Positions 10,955 through 17,534 of a DNA stretch of 32,000 nt are shown here, piece by piece. The position numbers and the translations under genes were made by a program. The notes under the pieces are model-generated. The model was not told the DNA's origin, searched no databases, and saw nothing but the letters and a program-made list of their open reading frames with translations. Position 1 is the stretch's first letter. Each line of letters begins with the position of its first letter. Origin of the DNA: Candidatus Electronema halotolerans (GTDB lineage: Bacteria > Desulfobacterota > Desulfobulbia > Desulfobulbales > Desulfobulbaceae); NCBI GenBank assembly GCA_942493095.1, contig OW818675.1:1920001-1952000 (forward strand), read 5' to 3'.

Positions 10955-11057
10955 TGCAGGCGGAACAGGTTGTTTTTATGCAATTTGATTCGTGCCGACA
11001 TAAACTGAACCTCCTCACATCGACGGATTTTGGTAAATGTTCATTGCTGCATTCAGA

Positions 11058-11159
11058 GTAGCCGAACCGCCAGCGCAGCTCCGGCATCTGCTCAAAATTC
11101 ATGCCGTAAACACCGGCAATGAAGGTTAGGGAAATAAAGATGGTGGAGATGATGGCAGG
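11058..11159 (-). pseudogene. corA: Remnant of a corA magnesium transporter gene, covering only the TM1 and GMN-motif region.
   Basis: The minus-strand translation [34 protein letters not shown] contains the CorA signature YGMNF..MPEL. There is no upstream CorA body, because the sequence changes character at about 11160. No hydrophobic TM2 follows the motif. Confidence 0.7.
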
Positions 11160-11430
11160 GTAAACGCATGACTTATTCTTGACAAATCATACGTTTGCCC
11201 TGCGAAGCAGGAAGAGAGCAGCTCTAAGCAGCCCGCATGGCGCAAGAAGATGATTGGGCTGGTGTTTGATACAACCTTCATTCCGCGCTGGATATTTGTC
11301 TGGCAGTCTGCAAATCTTCTTCAACAGACTCAGATGCGACGATATAACCGGTTGAGAAATACTCTTTCAACCGTTTTTTAAAATTGTCAAACCCTAAGCC
11401 CAATGAATGGTGATGGTGAACTGTGAGTGA

Positions 11431-12168
11431 TCAATTAAACAAAAGATTATTATTATAATCTTGAATGAACCTCCAGACAGATGCAGTTAAATTTTCGATG
11501 CTTCTCGAAAATGAAATGGTCTTTCTGACAAGTGCAGACAATCTTTGTCTGAATGTCAAATTGAGCCTTTCGATATGACTTGTTTTTCCGCTTCCTTTGC
11601 TGACAATTCTATGCCTTTCAGCTGGAAACACGCTCGAATAAGCGGCGAGTCCATCCGTAAAAAATATTCCGTTCTTTTTGCAATCTTCAGAAAGGGAGTC
11701 CCACAAGGCGGCTGCTCCTGCATTATCTCTTTTTCCAACATGATATCCGACAATAAGCTTTGTTCTTCTCTCGACAGCAAGCCATATCCAAATATCATTT
11801 TCCTTGTCACCAACGAAAGTCCACATTTCATCGGCTTCGATGAAGATTTTTCCGTTGCGGGACATATTGAAAGCCTCTTTTTTGACTTCATTTCGTTTTT
11901 TTTTAACATATTCCTGAAGCCATCTTTTTGAGATGGAAACGGCTCTCGCAATCCCAGCCAAGGAGATTCTTTCAACAAGAAGCTTATCAACTATGCGCCA
12001 TTCAGCATCAGATATTGTTTTGTTCTGAGGATTCTCAACGAATTGACGTGAGCAGTCCTTACATAAAAATTTCTTTTTCCCATTCGCATTGGAGCCATTT
12101 TTCACAATGACTGATGAACCACATCTTGGGCATTGCACAGCTTTCTTCTCCATGTTTGTTTTTTTCAT
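11431..12168 (-). CDS. IS1-family transposase in the single-ORF fused InsA-InsB form.
   Basis: The N-terminus has a zinc finger (CPRCGS...CKDCSRQF) and an HTH. The DDE core carries IS1-typical motifs: EADEMWTFV, FTDGLAAY and HIERLNLTFRQRL..LVRKT.SFS. Confidence 0.9.
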   Translation of the reverse strand: MKKTNMEKKAVQCPRCGSSVIVKNGSNANGKKKFLCKDCSRQFVENPQNKTISDAEWRIVDKLLVERISLAGIARAVSISKRWLQEYVKKKRNEVKKEAFNMSRNGKIFIEADEMWTFVGDKENDIWIWLAVERRTKLIVGYHVGKRDNAGAAALWDSLSEDCKKNGIFFTDGLAAYSSVFPAERHRIVSKGSGKTSHIERLNLTFRQRLSALVRKTISFSRSIENLTASVWRFIQDYNNNLLFN

Positions 12169-12231
12169 AATGACGGCTTGACATGCGCATCCGACGAAGA
12201 GCCGATGGGACAGAGAGCATCCCTTGCCGCC

Positions 12232-12259
12232 AGTATATTATATTTTCCAGCAATTTCAA
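12232..12259 (-). promoter_or_regulatory. Candidate promoter of the IS1 transposase, inside the right end of the element.
   Basis: The minus strand reads TTGAAA-N16-TATACT, about 60 nt upstream of the ATG at 12168. Confidence 0.35.
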
Positions 12260-12521
12260 CATATTTTCAACCCATCACTCACGATTCACCATTACCAATG
12301 AATTCGCTGCGGCCTGAAAGCTCATCTTGTGCGCATGGTATATGCCAGCCGCTAAGAAGAAACGTGCCAATTCCGCTGGACCTGCAAAGACATGAACAGC
12401 AATTTGTCTTAACTGTTTGAAGGATTCGTCACATTGATGCGGTCTATCAATAAAGTTGCCATAGTGGATTAGATTACTTTGCGCTTAACGATTTGCTTAT
12501 AAAAATTAATATTCTGATTAA

Positions 12522-13571
12522 TTAATTTGTCGTATCTTTCTCTTCCGTTATGTTCGGTTCTTGAGGAAGACGAATATCACCCTCAACAGGATTCAGTTTA
12601 AGATGCTGCTCTTGAACCGCGCTTTTATTAGATTCAACAACATCTGATATTGCTTCAAACAGATGCGAATGATTAACTTTCTTTTCCGAGTCGGGCTTAT
12701 CCTCTTTCGCCGCCGAAACAACTCCTTTTAATACAGCATTTTTAATGTCACGTCCAGAAATATCTTTGAATTCTGACGCTAACTTTGAAAAATCAACATC
12801 ATTATCCAGTGGCAATTTATCAGGAATTTGTATCTTCCAAATAGCCTTCCGTGACTCCTCGTCTGGCAATTCAAAATGTAGTTTCCAACGAATCCTGCTC
12901 AAAAAAGCTGGGTCATAGTTACCTATTAAATTTGTAGCGAAAATTATAACTCCTTCATAATTTGATAGCTGAGTTATCATTACACTTCTTGTTAAATTAA
13001 CGGCTGTATCTGTAGATTGAGTAACATTTTCCAGCCGTTTTCCAAGAAAAGAATCCGCCTCATCAAAAAAAAGAATAGCTTTATGTTCCGCAGCAAAAGT
13101 AAACGCACTGACAATATTTTTAGGAGTGTCCCCAACATATTTTGATTCAAGTTGTGAGTACGGGAGAACTATAATTTTTGATTTCAAGGTATAAGCCAAT
13201 GCCTCAGCAGCCAATGTCTTTCCTGTACCTGGAGGGCCTGAAAAATTCACAGAAAGGGCTTTATCTAATTTATGTTTTTCCCCAATTCCCCATTTGTTAT
13301 AAATTAAGTCGTAATGTTTAATTTCAGCCAAAACAGACTCTATCTGTTTTTTTGTATTTTTTGGTAAAATAACATCATTTAATGTATATTTAGGTTCACG
13401 AAGATATAACGAAAAATCAATTAATGAAGAAGGCGTTGATGAATTACAATTTTCTTCTTTGTTATCGTCAGCATCTTCAACAACACCCTTTTTTAAGGAA
13501 CTCACCTTTCCTTTGGAAAAATTTCTGAATTTCTCCATTCTCTCGTCTAAAGGCAAATCGTATCGCGGCAT
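12522..13571 (-). CDS. Classical-clade AAA+ ATPase with one AAA module and an N-terminal region of about 100 aa with no recognised domain.
   Basis: Walker A is GPPGTGKT (nt 13215-13238) and Walker B is ILFFDEAD. A second region of homology is present (IIFATNLIGNYDPAFLSRIR), as is a lid segment (ISGRDIKNAV). The ATG at 13571 is preceded by AGAGGGGG; the track's TTG at 13589 is less likely. Confidence 0.85.
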   Translation of the reverse strand: MPRYDLPLDERMEKFRNFSKGKVSSLKKGVVEDADDNKEENCNSSTPSSLIDFSLYLREPKYTLNDVILPKNTKKQIESVLAEIKHYDLIYNKWGIGEKHKLDKALSVNFSGPPGTGKTLAAEALAYTLKSKIIVLPYSQLESKYVGDTPKNIVSAFTFAAEHKAILFFDEADSFLGKRLENVTQSTDTAVNLTRSVMITQLSNYEGVIIFATNLIGNYDPAFLSRIRWKLHFELPDEESRKAIWKIQIPDKLPLDNDVDFSKLASEFKDISGRDIKNAVLKGVVSAAKEDKPDSEKKVNHSHLFEAISDVVESNKSAVQEQHLKLNPVEGDIRLPQEPNITEEKDTTN

Positions 13572-13590
13572 TTTAGCCCCCTCTTGCAAG

Positions 13591-14190
13591 TCAATCTATC
13601 TGGATAATCAGAGTGTCAAAAAATAAATTACGTTTCATTTCTCCGTATTTATCTGATTTAGTCATCATAGAATCGATACCGCTGAATATTGTATCTATAA
13701 ATTTCATCCCAATACGACCCTCAAATTCTGGAGGTTTTGGAGGAGCAACGAATCTCCTGAATAAATGAGAGAACAATTCGATACATATAACTTTCCATCT
13801 TTGATAAGATTCTCCGGTTAATCCATTGTCTAATATTATAATATCACGTAATCCAGAAGATTTTGTATCTGAAACTATCTTCAGATCATTCTGGTCAATG
13901 CTTGGAACTTTATATCCTCTTTGACTATCTTTGACATCTGGATTATATGCCCAGATTTTAAGATATCGAAAATCACAACTTCGCATTTGACGACTTTTCA
14001 TAAATATCGGCTTAACGATTAAGTCGTCAAAGAAATGCTGTGCTTTTTCACTGACAACGCACTTTCCGTTAGACAGTTTTTCTCCTGGAATCCCTATTAC
14101 TTCAATAGTTTTTAAACTCCCGTCCGCGTTTGAGGAGTTAAAACCTATTTGGAGAAAAATTTCTTCACGTTGCTCATTAACTCGTGGCAT
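13591..14190 (-). CDS. Hypothetical 199-aa protein with no recognisable motif.
   Basis: It is an intact ORF with an AAAGAGG Shine-Dalgarno 7 nt upstream. It is tightly packed between the small membrane protein gene and the ATPase gene, and shares the AT-rich composition of its neighbours. Confidence 0.6.
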   Translation of the reverse strand: MPRVNEQREEIFLQIGFNSSNADGSLKTIEVIGIPGEKLSNGKCVVSEKAQHFFDDLIVKPIFMKSRQMRSCDFRYLKIWAYNPDVKDSQRGYKVPSIDQNDLKIVSDTKSSGLRDIIILDNGLTGESYQRWKVICIELFSHLFRRFVAPPKPPEFEGRIGMKFIDTIFSGIDSMMTKSDKYGEMKRNLFFDTLIIQID

Positions 14191-14205
14191 GACAAACCTC
14201 TTTAT

Positions 14206-14547
14206 TCAGTGCCAATTTTGTAATTTAAGCTTCTTGGCTTCGCTTCGTTGCTTTGGCAAAGGTGAACTTTGGGGAGCTTGTTCCAGCGTAAAAACTTGAG
14301 ATGGCTTGCTATCACAATGAGTTGGGTCCCAAATTTCCATTATAGTTTCTCCTAAGGCATATCCTGCATAAAAGATAACATACAACGTTGAAACATAACC
14401 AAAAGCAGCAATTAAAACAGCAGCAACAGCTATTTCCCATAATTCTTGAAGAAGATATATCAACCCTTCCAAAAAAGCCTTTACTGCTCTTCCTAACCAA
14501 TCAAGCAGTTGATCAAGCAAACTGCCTAACCATGAAAAAAGTCCCAT
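14206..14547 (-). CDS. Small (113 aa) membrane protein, paralog 1, with a conserved C-terminal tail.
   Basis: A GGAGA Shine-Dalgarno lies 8 nt upstream. An amphipathic N-terminus (FSWLGSLLDQLLDWLGRAV) precedes a TM segment (IAVAAVLIAAFGYVSTLYVIFYAGYAL). The tail is QAPQSSPLPKQRSEAKKLKL. Confidence 0.6.
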   Translation of the reverse strand: MGLFSWLGSLLDQLLDWLGRAVKAFLEGLIYLLQELWEIAVAAVLIAAFGYVSTLYVIFYAGYALGETIMEIWDPTHCDSKPSQVFTLEQAPQSSPLPKQRSEAKKLKLQNWH

Positions 14548-14568
14548 TTTTTTATCTCCATATTTTTT

Positions 14569-14982
14569 TTAACTTAGCTTAAGTTTGCCAGCAATAACTT
14601 GCTTGTTAGGCAATGGAGCATCAGATGGTGCTTGCCCTATGGAGCCTATAGATGTTTCCTCTGTGCTCGGATTCATAAATCCAAGATAAACTTCATCGTC
14701 TTCTTGAAACAAGAAAACAATACATTCTTTAATATATCCAAACGCTTCTCTTATTAGGGATTTAACATCCTCCCATTGATTCTGAAGGAATTCAGCTATA
14801 TTAGCCAGAAAAATCTCAGTAGCTTCAGTGATGTATCCAAGAATTCCTTTAACGTCTGCAACAAAACTTTTCCATAAATCAACAAACCGTGGCCATAACG
14901 CATCAATAATTTTTGAAGCGGCATAAACTGTTGCGGCACCTGCCGCAATACCTATTACAGCACGCAATAATATATCTAACAT
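14569..14982 (-). CDS. Small (137 aa) membrane-associated protein, paralog 2, with a conserved C-terminal tail.
   Basis: An AGAGGAA Shine-Dalgarno lies upstream. An N-terminal hydrophobic helix (LRAVIGIAAGAATVYAA) is followed by amphipathic helices. The tail is QAPSDAPLPNKQVIAGKLKL. Confidence 0.6.
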   Translation of the reverse strand: MLDILLRAVIGIAAGAATVYAASKIIDALWPRFVDLWKSFVADVKGILGYITEATEIFLANIAEFLQNQWEDVKSLIREAFGYIKECIVFLFQEDDEVYLGFMNPSTEETSIGSIGQAPSDAPLPNKQVIAGKLKLS

Positions 14983-15080
14983 GACATTCCTCTGTTAGTC
15001 TTTATATAGCGACTTCGGGGTTCCTCGAAAAATACAACATCCATTCTGCTGCATTTGTTTTGTTATTTTTTATTTTAATA

Positions 15081-15108
15081 TTGAAATTTCAGTCTATTAT
15101 GTTATAAT
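15081..15108 (+). promoter_or_regulatory. Candidate sigma70 promoter of the IS5 transposase.
   Basis: The sequence is TTGAAA-N16-TATAAT with TGt directly upstream of the -10 box. It lies 40 nt upstream of the ATG at 15148. Confidence 0.45.
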
Positions 15109-15147
15109 TTCGGCATCAATTCAACTCATGCTGCCGGAGATGCACAG

Positions 15148-16161
15148 ATGAACCAACTTGGATTTTTTGATTTTTATATTCGTCTTTCCCGAATTGACAA
15201 AGCAGGTGATCCTTTAGTTAAGATCAACAAGGCTATTGACTGGGAAATATTTCGGCCAATTCTTGAAGAAGCAAAAAGAAAGCCTGTGAAATCAAATGCT
15301 GGAGCTAAAGGTTATGATTCAGTCATGATGTTCAAAATTTTAATTTTGCAATCATTATACAATCTTTCTGATAAAGGGATGGAATATCAAATTCTTGACA
15401 GATATTCGTTTTCCAGATTCCTTGGACTTCGGGCGGCTGACAAAGTTCCAGATGCGACAACGATATGGCTTTTTCGTGAAACTTTGACCAAAGCAGGAAA
15501 AATCGAGGAACTGTTTTCTGTTTTTGACGAATTTCTTGATGAAAATGGATATCAAGCCAGAAAAGGGCAGATAGTCGACGCTTCCATAGTCAACGCCCCG
15601 ATCCAGCGTAACAGCCGCAAGGAAAACAAGCAGATCAAGAATGGTGAACAGCCTGAAGGATGGAGTGAGAATAAGCAGGCGCAGAAGGATACTGATGCCC
15701 GTTGGACCAAAAAGAACGGCAGAAGCTTTTTTGGTTATAAAAATCATATATCTGTTGATGTGAAGCATAAATTCATCCGAAAATATGCGGTGACCAGCGC
15801 CGAGGTTCATGACAGCAATATTTTTGAGGAGCTGCTTGACCCTGACAACACCAGTCGGGATATCTATGCGGATTCGGCATACAGATCTGAAAAAAAGCTC
15901 AACTGGTTGAACGAGAATGGATACAGAGAGCATCTGAACCGCAAAGGAACACGAAGCCGGAAACTGACCGAATGGGAGAAGCAGGGAAATCGGACAAGAT
16001 CAAAAATTCGCTCCCGGATTGAACACGTCTTCGGCATCCAGGCGCAACGTGCTGGCAATATGATTCTCCGAGGAACAGGTTTCATTCGCGCTGCTGCGAA
16101 AATAGGCTTGAGAAACTTGACGTTCAATATTGACAGGTACGGAACTCTTAATAAAATTTAA
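15148..16161 (+). CDS. IS5-family (IS4/IS5 superfamily) DDE transposase.
   Basis: IS5-typical blocks are present: AGAKGYDSVMMFKILILQSLYNLSD, DATTIWLFRE, IVDASIV.AP, DTDARWTKK....FGYKNHI, ADSAY and SKIRSRIEHVFG. Confidence 0.9.
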   Translation: MNQLGFFDFYIRLSRIDKAGDPLVKINKAIDWEIFRPILEEAKRKPVKSNAGAKGYDSVMMFKILILQSLYNLSDKGMEYQILDRYSFSRFLGLRAADKVPDATTIWLFRETLTKAGKIEELFSVFDEFLDENGYQARKGQIVDASIVNAPIQRNSRKENKQIKNGEQPEGWSENKQAQKDTDARWTKKNGRSFFGYKNHISVDVKHKFIRKYAVTSAEVHDSNIFEELLDPDNTSRDIYADSAYRSEKKLNWLNENGYREHLNRKGTRSRKLTEWEKQGNRTRSKIRSRIEHVFGIQAQRAGNMILRGTGFIRAAAKIGLRNLTFNIDRYGTLNKI

Positions 16162-16384
16162 GATTTAAAAAAAAGAAACGCATTCAGGAACATATTTCAA
16201 CGGAAGTTTGCTCAAAATAAATAAAAAACAGGAAATAACAATTTATGTATTTGAAATTTTCAACTGTCAAAGACACTATTGATAAGCTGAAAAAACTTTA
16301 TCTCAAATTTTTCGAGGTTCCCTTCGGATTGCATGGTTATCAAACCCAACAATGACAAAAAAACGATTTGATTGATTTTGACTT

Positions 16385-16512
16385 AACTGTTAGGAATTAC
16401 GCAGTTGGAGTGCCAACCCGTTGATTTTATTCAACTGGCGATTTAAGCGGTAAAAAGACAACTGGCTGTAATAGCTAAACTTCTTATTTCAACTGCGTAA
16501 CTCCTACCAGTT
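16385..16512. repeat. A 128-bp element bounded by 23-bp inverted repeats; either MITE-like or a long-stem RNA.
   Basis: AACTGTTAGGAATTACGCAGTTG (16385-16407) matches the reverse complement of 16490-16512, AACTGGTAGGAGTTACGCAGTTG, at 21/23. The CAACTG(G/C) motif recurs inside at about 16432 and about 16459. Confidence 0.6.
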
Positions 16513-16723
16513 TTTAAAATTCACTGCCCATAGTAAAAAAATGGAAGCCAAATAAATTTATTACTATGGCCTCTCAGTTTGTTTCAATGAGACCTTCTTA
16601 TCAAAAATAGGTTCCCGTGCAGCCTGCTTTTTATCCTGCGAGTTTTCCACTTTTTCCGCCAGTTGTCAAGAAATATTTCCGGGCCGCACAAAAAGACTTG
16701 CACTGGCACCACAAAAGCAAAAA

Positions 16724-16748
16724 GGGTTCAGGCCGCCAGCCCGAACCC
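16724..16748 (-). terminator. Bidirectional rho-independent terminator downstream of higA.
   Basis: The stem is gggttcaggc/gcccgaaccc (10 bp with one A.C mismatch) and the loop is cgcca. It is flanked by an A-rich stretch (16712-16723) and a T-rich stretch (16749-16758). Confidence 0.65.
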
Positions 16749-16781
16749 TTTCTTGTTTCCGCTGTAGCAACGCAGCTAAGA

Positions 16782-17162
16782 TCATGCCAGAATAGGAACA
16801 TCCTCATTCGATTCAGGAATGAACAGATCGGCGGAGATTTTCAGCCCTTTCTTCAGCCGCATGATCATCTCAACAGTTAGCTTTTTCTTTCGTTCCAGAA
16901 CTTGCCGCACTACCGCCTTGGTGCCAATATACGGCTCAAGCTCATTGCTGGTGATGCCTTTCCATTCCATGATGTATTTCAGAGCCTCAACCGGGTCAGG
17001 AAAATCAATGGGAAAATGTTTTTCTTCATAATCTTCGGCAAGCACAGACAGCACTTCAAGCTCGTTGAACTCGTCAGAACCCGGCGGCGCATCAAGCAAC
17101 GCATCAATCCGCTGCATCACCTGATTGTAATCTTCCTCTGAACGTATCGGCAGAATGATCAT
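16782..17162 (-). CDS. higA: HigA-type antitoxin: an HTH (Xre-like) protein with an N-terminal extension.
   Basis: It lies immediately downstream of the higB-like toxin in the toxin-first order typical of higBA. An AAGGAGG Shine-Dalgarno lies 5 nt upstream. The HTH region is ITSNELEPYIGTKAVVRQVLERKKKLTVEMIMRL. Confidence 0.7.
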   Translation of the reverse strand: MIILPIRSEEDYNQVMQRIDALLDAPPGSDEFNELEVLSVLAEDYEEKHFPIDFPDPVEALKYIMEWKGITSNELEPYIGTKAVVRQVLERKKKLTVEMIMRLKKGLKISADLFIPESNEDVPILA

Positions 17163-17185
17163 TATGACCTCCTTTCGCGCCGCTT

Positions 17186-17479
17186 TTAAACAGCATTCGC
17201 ATCAATCTTATCGTATTCGGCATGAGTGCCGATGAAGCGGATGTAAACTCGTTGCAGTTCATAAACTGCTTTCACGATCAAGCGGTACTTGTTTCCTTTG
17301 ATATTGAAGCATATTCTGTCGTTCTTGAGAATATCCGCCGTTGAAAAAATATTTTTCATCTCCGCCGGGCCGCTCCAGCTCGCTTTACTGACCACCGCAT
17401 ACCAAGTTTTCAACGCCTGCTCGGAATCAGGATGCTTTTCCCAGAATTCCATCAAAGTTTTGCGCTTGATGATGTGCAT
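17186..17479 (-). CDS. higB: HigB-family type II toxin (mRNA interferase).
   Basis: The sequence MHIIKRKTLMEFWEKHPDSEQALKTWY......W....E.K.......IL...R..FNIKGNKYRLIV.....Q.VYIRFIGTHAEYDKI matches the HigB_toxin pattern. The ATG is at 17479. Confidence 0.8.
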   Translation of the reverse strand: MHIIKRKTLMEFWEKHPDSEQALKTWYAVVSKASWSGPAEMKNIFSTADILKNDRICFNIKGNKYRLIVKAVYELQRVYIRFIGTHAEYDKIDANAV

Positions 17480-17495
17480 GATCAATCTTTTCGGT

Positions 17496-17534
17496 AAAAC
17501 GGGGATTCAGACCATCGCCAAAATCCCCGTTTTT
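17496..17534 (-). terminator. Rho-independent (bidirectional) terminator after the glutamate synthase operon.
   Basis: A perfect 12-bp stem, aaaacggggatt (17496-17507) / aatccccgtttt (17522-17533), encloses a 14-nt loop. The U-run is part of the stem and continues just beyond it. Confidence 0.7.

Follow-up and report, generated by a model that had tools for sequence, protein, structure and literature searches.

We analysed a 32,000-nt stretch of DNA from the cable bacterium Candidatus Electronema halotolerans (contig OW818675.1, positions 1,920,001 to 1,952,000; the whole stretch is called the window below). On its minus strand the window carries a compact cassette of four genes, which encode two small proteins (A and B), a larger protein (C) and an AAA+ ATPase and are separated by gaps of 21, 15 and 19 nt. 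The two small proteins end in a common tail, which is the main subject of this work. Both open reading frames (ORFs) lie at the positions reported in a first-pass annotation of the window, made from the letters alone. The cassette comprises the following features.

14569-14982, minus strand: type-A small protein, 137 aa, in which a hydrophobic N-terminal segment and a helical region precede a beta-hairpin that ends in FMNP; the tail forms the C-terminus
14575-14634, minus strand: tail of A, QAPSDAPLPNKQVIAGKLKL, followed by S and the stop codon
14206-14547, minus strand: type-B small protein, 113 aa, with an amphipathic and then hydrophobic helix, three strands and the tail (residues 89-113)
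14209-14280, minus strand: tail of B, QAPQSSPLPKQRSEAKKLKLQNWH; family consensus QAPQxSPLPxxRSEAKxLxLxNW
13591-14190, minus strand: protein C, 199 aa, with an alpha+beta fold, a Pro-rich linker and an invariant C-terminal strand
12522-13571, minus strand: classical-clade AAA+ ATPase, 349 aa counted from the ATG at 13571 (the ORF list uses a TTG at 13589); PF00004, E = 2.6e-24

The tail shared by two paralogous small proteins

Protein A ends in QAPSDAPLPNKQVIAGKLKL-S and protein B in QAPQSSPLPKQRSEAKKLKL-QNWH. The spacing QAP-3-PLP-7-KLKL, which the first-pass annotation had described as the same in both proteins, was confirmed, and 11 of 20 residues match in register. Among 20,000 composition-preserving shuffles of the whole proteins, none gave 11 tail matches, and the best result was 9. 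The same codon is used at 3 of the 11 identical residues and a different codon at the remaining 8. Since only 3 of 11 codons are the same, the identity of the two tails is maintained at the protein level and is not the result of recent gene conversion, which was ruled out as its source.

The similarity of A and B extends well beyond the tail. The bodies had been regarded as hard to align, a view that has to be abandoned: BLASTP aligns the two proteins over 96 residues with 27% identity (E = 2e-8), and, as judged by their sequences, A and B are diverged paralogues. The landmarks common to both are F/L…LQxxWE…AFGY…V, the hairpin, (D/N)P and the tail. Of the proposed ending of the bodies, W/M-(D/N)-P-(T/S), the W/M-(D/N)-P portion is present and conserved in homologues, where it takes the form EIWDP in type B and in a further paralogue class, type D, and h-x-(D/N/H)-P in type A, but the T/S position is not conserved.

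An important question is whether the two ORFs are genes at all, and the first-pass annotation had named a missing coding signature as a reason to discard its proposal. The signature is present. Across 26 loci, synonymous sites were saturated in both ORFs (synonymous divergence, pS, 0.64-0.74), with a non-synonymous divergence (pN) of 0.12-0.36. Therefore, A and B are true genes under purifying selection. The pN/pS ratio of type A was 0.36-0.52. In type B it was 0.40 in the N-terminal helix, 0.26 in the beta-core and 0.18 in the QAP..PLP region (pN 0.12), which has the lowest non-synonymous divergence of the protein.

AlphaFold2 models were computed for the monomers of B (120 sequences) and C. 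In the model of B (mean predicted local distance difference test score, pLDDT, 78), a helix at residues 4-49 (pLDDT 80-94) is followed by strands at 56-62, 67-73 and 84-88, and the tail (89-113) is coil with a pLDDT of ~52. The bodies had been described as hydrophobic or amphipathic and helical. This applies to the N-termini of A, which has a hydrophobic segment at residues 4-22 (Kyte-Doolittle maximum 1.83), and of B, in which a strongly amphipathic helix leads into a hydrophobic stretch (Kyte-Doolittle 2.19). It does not apply to the bodies as a whole, which combine a helix with a three-stranded sheet, or to type D, which is without a membrane-like segment (Kyte-Doolittle <=1.13). The hairpin turn is polar in D (KQEQNQ) and in A (QEDDE), and the segment is therefore supported as a hairpin and not as a transmembrane helix. 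A purely transmembrane-helix reading of the B core was ruled out by the polar type-D counterpart together with the beta-hairpin in the model. A Foldseek search with the B model against the PDB gave no match at E <1, and the B profile had no match among PDB sequences.

Conservation of the tail across the family

The family to which A and B belong is narrow: an exhaustive hidden Markov model search with the small-protein profile yielded only 65 clusters among 1.84 billion representative proteins, and the A+B profile retrieved 157 proteins among 5.8 billion. Type A is represented, for example, by homologues P0001, P0003-5, P0007, P0029 and P0055, and the type-B family has 112 members. The hosts are mostly filamentous cyanobacteria (Microcoleus, Okeania, Trichodesmium and Nostocales), together with Woronichinia, a plasmid of Synechococcus elongatus PCC 11801, Beggiatoa, Thiomargarita and the cable bacterium of the window. 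Most homologues are labelled 'hypothetical protein' in their sources and none bears a functional name; one is called 'phage-related minor tail protein' (JGI). Scans of Pfam, NCBIfam, PHROG and PADLOC gave no significant model for A, B or C.

Gene order was compared in 36 fetched locus records and the window, which together represent ~30 distinct loci (several records are duplicates) from cyanobacteria, Thiomargarita and the PCC 11801 plasmid. All but one of the distinct loci have the order A-B-C-[D]-AAA+, with A of ~134-160 aa, B of ~113 aa, C of ~190-210 aa, 0-2 copies of D of ~133-162 aa and an ATPase of ~330-360 aa; the exception is the locus of a fusion protein. A is the first gene of the cassette at nearly all loci. 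The tail is kept in all three paralogue classes (A, B and D), which differ in their N-terminal parts, and has the following forms.

Type B: QAPQxSPLPxxRSEAKxLxLxNW
Type D: G(I/V)P…(F/L)PxxRSxAxIxxLxxW
Type A, cyanobacteria: (D/E)x(A/V)QLPTxQNPIVTxLxL
Type A, cable-bacterium and Thiomargarita clade: QAPxxAPLP/QLAxxQVIAGxLxL

Type B is conserved end to end, with the motifs MGFFxWLGxLxDQLxxWLG, AAFG, LYVIFYAG, GETIMEIWDP, KPSQVF, QAPQxSPLP and RSEAKxLxLxNW and with nearly invariant R101 and K81. The expectation that the tail would be the most conserved segment in an alignment of homologues was thus borne out in part: the tail is conserved, but not uniquely so, the LYVIFYAG…GETIMEIWDP core being equally conserved. 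The AP-3-PLP spacing is found in 91 of the 112 B proteins, 84 of which also have the commonest distance from PLP to the terminal strand, and a 6-residue insertion in the AP-PLP spacer occurs in 11 of the 112. Between PLP and the terminal strand the distance hardly varies, and of the 104 B sequences in which this final strand could be located, 103 have it <=5 residues from the C-terminus. The carriers of the insertion include P0041, P0058, P0059, P0061, P0063-66, P0073, P0075, P0079 and others; the insertion, of which QAPTFGQALQDSPLP is one example, resembles a partial duplication of the tail motif.

As a motif, 'QAP' and 'KLKL' hold as a theme of positions and not as letters: KLKL generalises to h-L-x-L, and QAP is missing from the cyanobacterial type A. 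In the aligned sequences, the common core is AP…(L/K)P, ~7-8 residues and a terminal alternating hydrophobic strand, rather than a literal QAP/KLKL. In a distant B-like clade, the tail reads APxGVxKPxRxxAxV(Y/F/L) and a C-like gene comes next; the contigs of this clade (P0290 and P0302) are <1 kb long and show just this following gene. Selection maintains the tail as a module of the extreme C-terminus, which consists of a short strand, a Pro linker (AP…LP) and an alternating-hydrophobic end strand.

This module also occurs in fusion proteins and on other bodies. In Trichormus sp. NMC-1 (L033 5164-6348), a 394-aa protein joins a CHAT domain (5e-6) and a TRADD-like_N domain (1e-8) to a complete B with its tail. 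The gene adjoins a convergent gene for a 1479-aa AAA_35 STAND-WD40 protein, and neither a C gene nor an AAA+ gene was found within 6 kb of it. A scan of metagenomes revealed ordinary cassettes and one fusion of B with pentapeptide repeats. In this fusion (L050 900-3588), B carries N-terminal pentapeptide repeats (309 aa) inside an otherwise normal cassette; at this locus, type A is replaced by a 245-aa ORF that matches none of the A, B, C and ATPase profiles. In the B modules bearing N-terminal fusions, whether CHAT-TRADD-N or pentapeptide repeats, the tail always stays C-terminal.

A different arrangement is found at L043 5852-10232 (also in L044 and L045), where a 743-aa protein with Clp_N, a kinase domain and two DUF3110 domains ends in …KLFVLEKAPDDSPLPTNRSEAKRLKLENWD. 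It carries the unit of beta2/beta3 plus tail and follows a 615-aa Clp-type AAA_2 ATPase. Genes for kinase-WD40, vWA, FHA, PP2C and kinase-FGE-sulfatase proteins lie downstream, and a 42-aa ORF upstream of the fusion (…SVDWLIAVFFQGY) resembles a type-A remnant. Moreover, KPxQIFKLEKAPxxxPLPTKRSxAxxLxLENW is present in proteins of 84-127 aa whose helical body is of another kind. At L046 7080-8776, the gene for a 293-aa MMR_HSR1 GTPase precedes one for a 127-aa protein that joins such a body to a B-type tail, and next comes a truncated copy of this body (63 aa); a separate cluster of 63-aa proteins (P0306) has two tail-like copies in tandem.

Protein C, too, has a fused form. In the homologue P0238 (JGI 3300059473, 3792 nt), the N-terminus is an EAD9 domain (25.6 bits; cut-off 25), and the protein directly follows a 344-aa CHAT-EAD9 protein; PIN and XisI genes come next, a partial 120-aa ORF lies upstream, and no AAA+ gene is present on this contig of 3792 nt. 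At L034 820-1716, a 298-aa ORF starts with N-terminal B sequence, continues with an internal portion of C and finishes with C-terminal D sequence, and the ATPase is N-terminally shortened; this ORF is probably a deletion product or part of a decayed cassette.

Protein C, the ATPase and the genomic setting

Protein C has 184 homologues, none of which has a functional name; its best match, annotated as Candidatus Electronema halotolerans, is 100% identical, and a Pfam scan of 117 of them gave no match. Its AlphaFold2 model shows a confident alpha+beta fold (pLDDT 83.6; predicted template modelling score 0.79) and a low-confidence Pro-rich linker at approximately residues 150-180. The protein ends in the invariant strand …LFF(N/D)(A/T)LIIQID, within the C-terminal quarter (13591-13740). 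In the model this strand packs onto the protein's own sheet with a pLDDT of ~96, though it is tethered by a low-confidence linker of ~30 residues, and it may be a displaceable strand. Foldseek searches with the C model against the PDB and BFVD gave no match at E <1, and the C profile found nothing significant among PDB sequences (best E = 0.026).

The neighbouring gene was correctly recognised in the first-pass annotation as a classical AAA+ ATPase, as the PF00004 match confirms. The Walker A (GPPGTGKT) and Walker B (FFDEAD) motifs and the second region of homology (ATNLIxNYDPAFxSRIR) are invariant or nearly so across the loci, and the pore loop ESKYVGETPKN, in which KYVG is the aromatic-hydrophobic-Gly pore loop 1, is invariant. 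All four hallmarks of the classical-clade AAA+ unfoldases are therefore present. The best relatives in the PDB are p97/Cdc48 D2 and Rpt subunits (E = 4.7e-33). There is effectively no N-domain: an MPRxD start and a low-complexity linker are followed directly by the AAA module (Pfam gives AAA and lid only), which suggests that substrates are selected through an adaptor or a tag. In its terminal peptides (13520-13571 and 12522-12640), the ATPase has an N-terminal MPRxD…F and, near the C-terminus, hxL(T/N)PVEGxhxLP(P); the latter holds an LxL strand and LP in the order opposite to that of the small-protein tails.

The ATPase matches the IetA model of PADLOC (2.3e-32, 110.8 bits) and the NCBIfam model IteA NF042959 (4.3e-29, 101.8 bits), and its generic hits to PAN (96.6 bits) and p97 (118 bits) are comparable. 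Its hits to the IetA and TRIP13 models are the sole PADLOC matches in the cassette. The nearest phage homologue (44.7% identity) is in Moraxella phage Mcat5 (KR093629; L049 46050-47875), where it lies at the extreme end of the prophage record, after a helix-turn-helix (HTH)-WYL-WCX regulator, with any downstream partners cut off. Relatives of C were not found in the INPHARED phages, nor relatives of B and C in the viral contigs of IMG/VR, and a phage origin of the cassette was therefore rejected.

The cassette of the window sits within an island of low GC content (~11000-17500; GC 0.34-0.42 against ~0.59 in the flanks), which also holds the following genes.

11431-12168, minus strand: IS1-family transposase (PF03400 and PF03811), flanking the cassette downstream and bounding the island
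15148-16161, plus strand: IS5-type DDE transposase (PF01609 and DUF772), at the place where other loci have a divergent regulator
17186-17485: higB toxin gene, adjoined by a 126-aa ORF (16782-17162) with no Pfam match

No tRNA gene was found in the 32,000-nt window, and a scan for promoters and terminators revealed nothing exceeding the shuffle expectation. The divergent regulator upstream of A elsewhere is a STAND NTPase with HTH_VMAP-M9 (and NB-ARC) at >=10 loci, an upstream LuxR/GerE-type protein of ~175 aa is present at ~17 loci, and an XRE HTH protein is found in Thiomargarita. Toxin-antitoxin genes are abundant around the cassettes, and in Synechococcus elongatus PCC 11801 a plasmid of 22.8 kb carries one copy of the cassette. 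In 8 locus records (~5 distinct loci; L037 10508-10741, L042 10513-10752 and six others), a conserved ORF of 77-79 aa comes immediately after the gene for the ATPase. This ORF, which is absent from the window, may be an extra component of the cassette.

Possible roles of the tail and of the cassette

The question that follows from these data is whether the cassette belongs to a system already described. The first-pass annotation had drawn an analogy to ESCRT-III and Vps4, and the general plan is indeed alike, with small paralogous subunits that bear a conserved C-terminal peptide beside a classical AAA+ ATPase (CdvC model, 1.9e-22). However, the analogy fails in its particulars: a MIT domain is missing from the ATPase, Snf7/PspA signals are absent from the small proteins, the tail is Pro-rich and strand-like whereas the MIM is helical, and B is predicted by AlphaFold2 to be one long helix with a three-stranded sheet and not a helical hairpin. 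Membership in ESCRT-III/Vps4 was rejected on the grounds of the missing MIT domain, the missing Snf7/PspA Pfam match and the lack of a PDB match in sequence or fold.

The likeness to IetAS lies in the ATPase, which is a single-module classical AAA+ protein of ~350 aa matching the IetA models, and in the mobile context resembling that of toxin-antitoxin or defence genes. However, the A/B/D and C partners have no counterpart in IetAS, and the S8 subtilisin-like protease IetS is missing from the cassette, which is therefore not IetAS; an S8 gene does occur 3-6 kb upstream in one lineage, but it is not conserved. Membership was rejected, with 101.8 bits for NF042959 against a cut-off of 510 and no adjacent IetS. 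A further analogy is offered by the C-terminal tags and tethered adaptors of AAA+ unfoldases, namely ssrA-ClpX with its adaptor SspB and the HbYX tails of proteasomal ATPases. In the cassette, too, a sequence-specific peptide that is predicted to be disordered occupies the extreme C-terminus beside a pore-loop-competent unfoldase, and C, with its long flexible linker and conserved C-terminal peptide, could be an adaptor. In contrast to these systems, the cassette has no peptidase partner, its motif is much longer, and the terminal strand of C is predicted to pack on its own body. For type A, the helical region gave weak PHROG matches to phage tape-measure proteins (best E = 7e-4) and one homologue is labelled a minor tail protein, but the genomic context is not that of a tail module, and this label was rejected because the matches are marginal and limited to the helical region.

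There are also parallels with the conflict systems described by Kaur, Burroughs, Iyer and Aravind (2020, 2021). EADs have been predicted to act as homotypic coupling adaptors of such systems, EAD9 recruiting signalling components (PMC7159879), and Kaur et al. reported bacterial TRADD-N proteins with N-terminal effectors such as caspases and with variable C-terminal sensor or adaptor domains (PMC8195603). Here, B is fused to CHAT-TRADD-N beside a STAND-WD40 gene, C is fused to EAD9 beside a CHAT-EAD9 gene, STAND NTPases with HTH_VMAP-M9 lie upstream of many cassettes, and the main hosts are filamentous cyanobacteria, Thiomargarita, Beggiatoa and cable bacteria. Through the CHAT-TRADD-N-B and EAD9-C links, B and C join the networks of conflict systems in multicellular bacteria, and the fusions together with the upstream STAND-HTH regulators point to a conflict system; the surroundings rich in toxin-antitoxin genes, the plasmid copy and the IS flanks in a low-GC island speak for it as well. 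These links to EAD, TRADD-N, CHAT and STAND were found at variant loci and not in the window itself. Unlike the described systems, the cassette has a classical AAA+ protein as its core NTPase, rather than MoxR, STAND or a GTPase, and no recognisable enzymatic effector. It fits no anti-phage system catalogued in PADLOC-DB v2, where A, B and C have no match, and no description of it was found in the literature on IetA/Ietas or, by term search, in the two conflict-system papers (PMC7159879, PMC8195603). The cassette looks like a conflict or toxin-antitoxin-like module built around an AAA+ ATPase, with novel partners that bear the tag, and it appears to be undescribed so far.

Another important question is what the tail does. 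Its conservation, its end position, its predicted disorder, its retention across classes and bodies and the KYVG-bearing ATPase together fit a peptide that is read in trans. The explanation that we favour, although tentatively, is that the conserved tail docks the small subunits onto a common partner in trans and that the cassette is a module of the abortive-infection or toxin-antitoxin type. The proposal of a docking or recognition peptide in the first-pass annotation thus remains plausible in so far as the tail is conserved, terminal, disordered in the model and kept on differing bodies, although the tail is not uniquely conserved and the bodies are not purely helical. In this scheme, the tail would be a docking strand that ties all small subunits, those with a hydrophobic N-terminal body (A and B) as well as those with a soluble one (D), to a common receptor, for which the most likely candidates are protein C, as an adaptor or nucleator, and the ATPase itself. 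The pore-loop-competent ATPase would then assemble, disassemble or neutralise the probably membrane-active small subunits in an ATP-dependent manner, and the whole cassette would be a conflict or immunity module that moves among filamentous and large bacteria. That an ATPase may neutralise a toxic partner has a precedent in IetAS, in which the AAA ATPase was reported as the antitoxin (PMC13069673).

A more elaborate version, which we regard as rather doubtful, would be a new kind of ATP-driven machine with 2-4 tagged paralogues, both membrane and soluble, in which C as a dedicated adaptor of novel fold reads the tag and hands the subunits to the domain-less classical AAA+ ATPase. Such a machine would control the assembly of a membrane-damaging or membrane-remodelling immune or suicide complex in multicellular bacteria, and the tag may also recruit clients such as kinases or CHAT proteases.

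Several observations weigh against docking onto a common partner. The tail is retained in the Trichormus fusion with neither C nor an AAA+ gene within 6 kb, and the EAD9-C locus has no AAA+ gene, so the role of the tail may not depend on the ATPase. The cyanobacterial type-A tail is clearly unlike those of B and D, which argues against one identical receptor site. Proteins in which the tail occurs alone are rare (4 of the 65 clusters), and the type-A-like 42-aa fragment upstream of the kinase fusion suggests that this fusion may be a by-product of rearrangement rather than designed modularity. Finally, the defence role is a matter of association, and none of A, B and C is represented among the PADLOC models.

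Some of the same observations can be read differently. The terminal h-L-x-L strand of one small subunit could be added to the open three-stranded sheet of an adjacent subunit, whether A, B or D, and so complete it, giving a homo- or hetero-oligomer (a ring, filament or pore) whose tails are not read by the ATPase or C. This possibility, somewhat unlikely in our view, agrees with the presence of the beta-core and tail in all 2-4 paralogues of a locus, with the three-stranded sheet and unplaced terminal strand in the model of B and with the Trichormus fusion; the beta3-plus-tail proteins without a hairpin could serve as caps or clients. However, AlphaFold2 gave no confident placement of the tail from 120 sequences, though homo-oligomer contacts often surface in such models; the type-A tail diverged from those of B and D while the cores stayed similar; and the strict synteny of a pore-loop-competent AAA+ ATPase and C would be left unexplained. 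An unlikely alternative is that the tail, as a C-terminal degron or initiation site, is fed directly into the AAA+ pore. The ATPase would then be an ATP-dependent antitoxin that continuously unfolds or extracts the small membrane-active proteins, which a loss of its activity would set free. The extreme C-terminal, disordered position of the tail, the ATPase with its invariant KYVG loop and no N-domain, the antitoxin action of the IetAS ATPase (PMC13069673) and the tail-bearing kinase protein next to a different, Clp-type AAA+ ATPase would all suit such a role, but a conserved motif of ~25 residues with fixed spacing far exceeds the usual needs of pore engagement, the likeness of the ATPase to IetA (110.8 and 101.8 bits) is not above that to PAN (96.6) or p97 (118), and the tail persists without a nearby AAA+ gene.

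Bacterial gasdermins carry a short inhibitory peptide that is removed by associated caspase-like proteases. By analogy, the tail could be an autoinhibitory or cleavable peptide whose removal or displacement activates a membrane-damaging N-terminal part. B is fused to a CHAT protease and C is paired with one, the near-invariant R101 and K81 could be sites for an Arg/Lys-specific orthocaspase, and the N-terminal helices of A and B are hydrophobic or amphipathic. Nevertheless, the canonical cassette has no protease, no packing of the tail against the body is predicted, and the soluble type D keeps the tail without a membrane-like segment, so we consider this role improbable. By far the least probable explanation is that the tail is mere residual similarity of paralogues and has no function. 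It is true that A and B are paralogous over most of their length and that the core is as conserved as the tail, but non-synonymous divergence in B reaches its minimum in the QAP..PLP region, the tail is preserved in three classes whose N-termini have diverged beyond recognition and on unrelated bodies, and its C-terminal position is fixed.

If the tail is a docking tag, it gives a handle on a wholly uncharacterised gene cassette, for whose A, B and C proteins there is neither a curated family nor a relative by structure. Filamentous cyanobacteria, giant sulfur bacteria and cable bacteria have the cassette in common through horizontal transfer, and CHAT, TRADD-N, EAD9 and STAND partners link it to the networks of 'bacterial apoptosis and immunity' predicted by comparative genomics. 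Synechococcus elongatus PCC 11801 is genetically tractable, and the copy of the cassette on its plasmid makes the idea of a docking tag directly testable. If this idea is true, a classical AAA+ ATPase with tag-bearing small subunits would join the NTPase cores of conflict systems.

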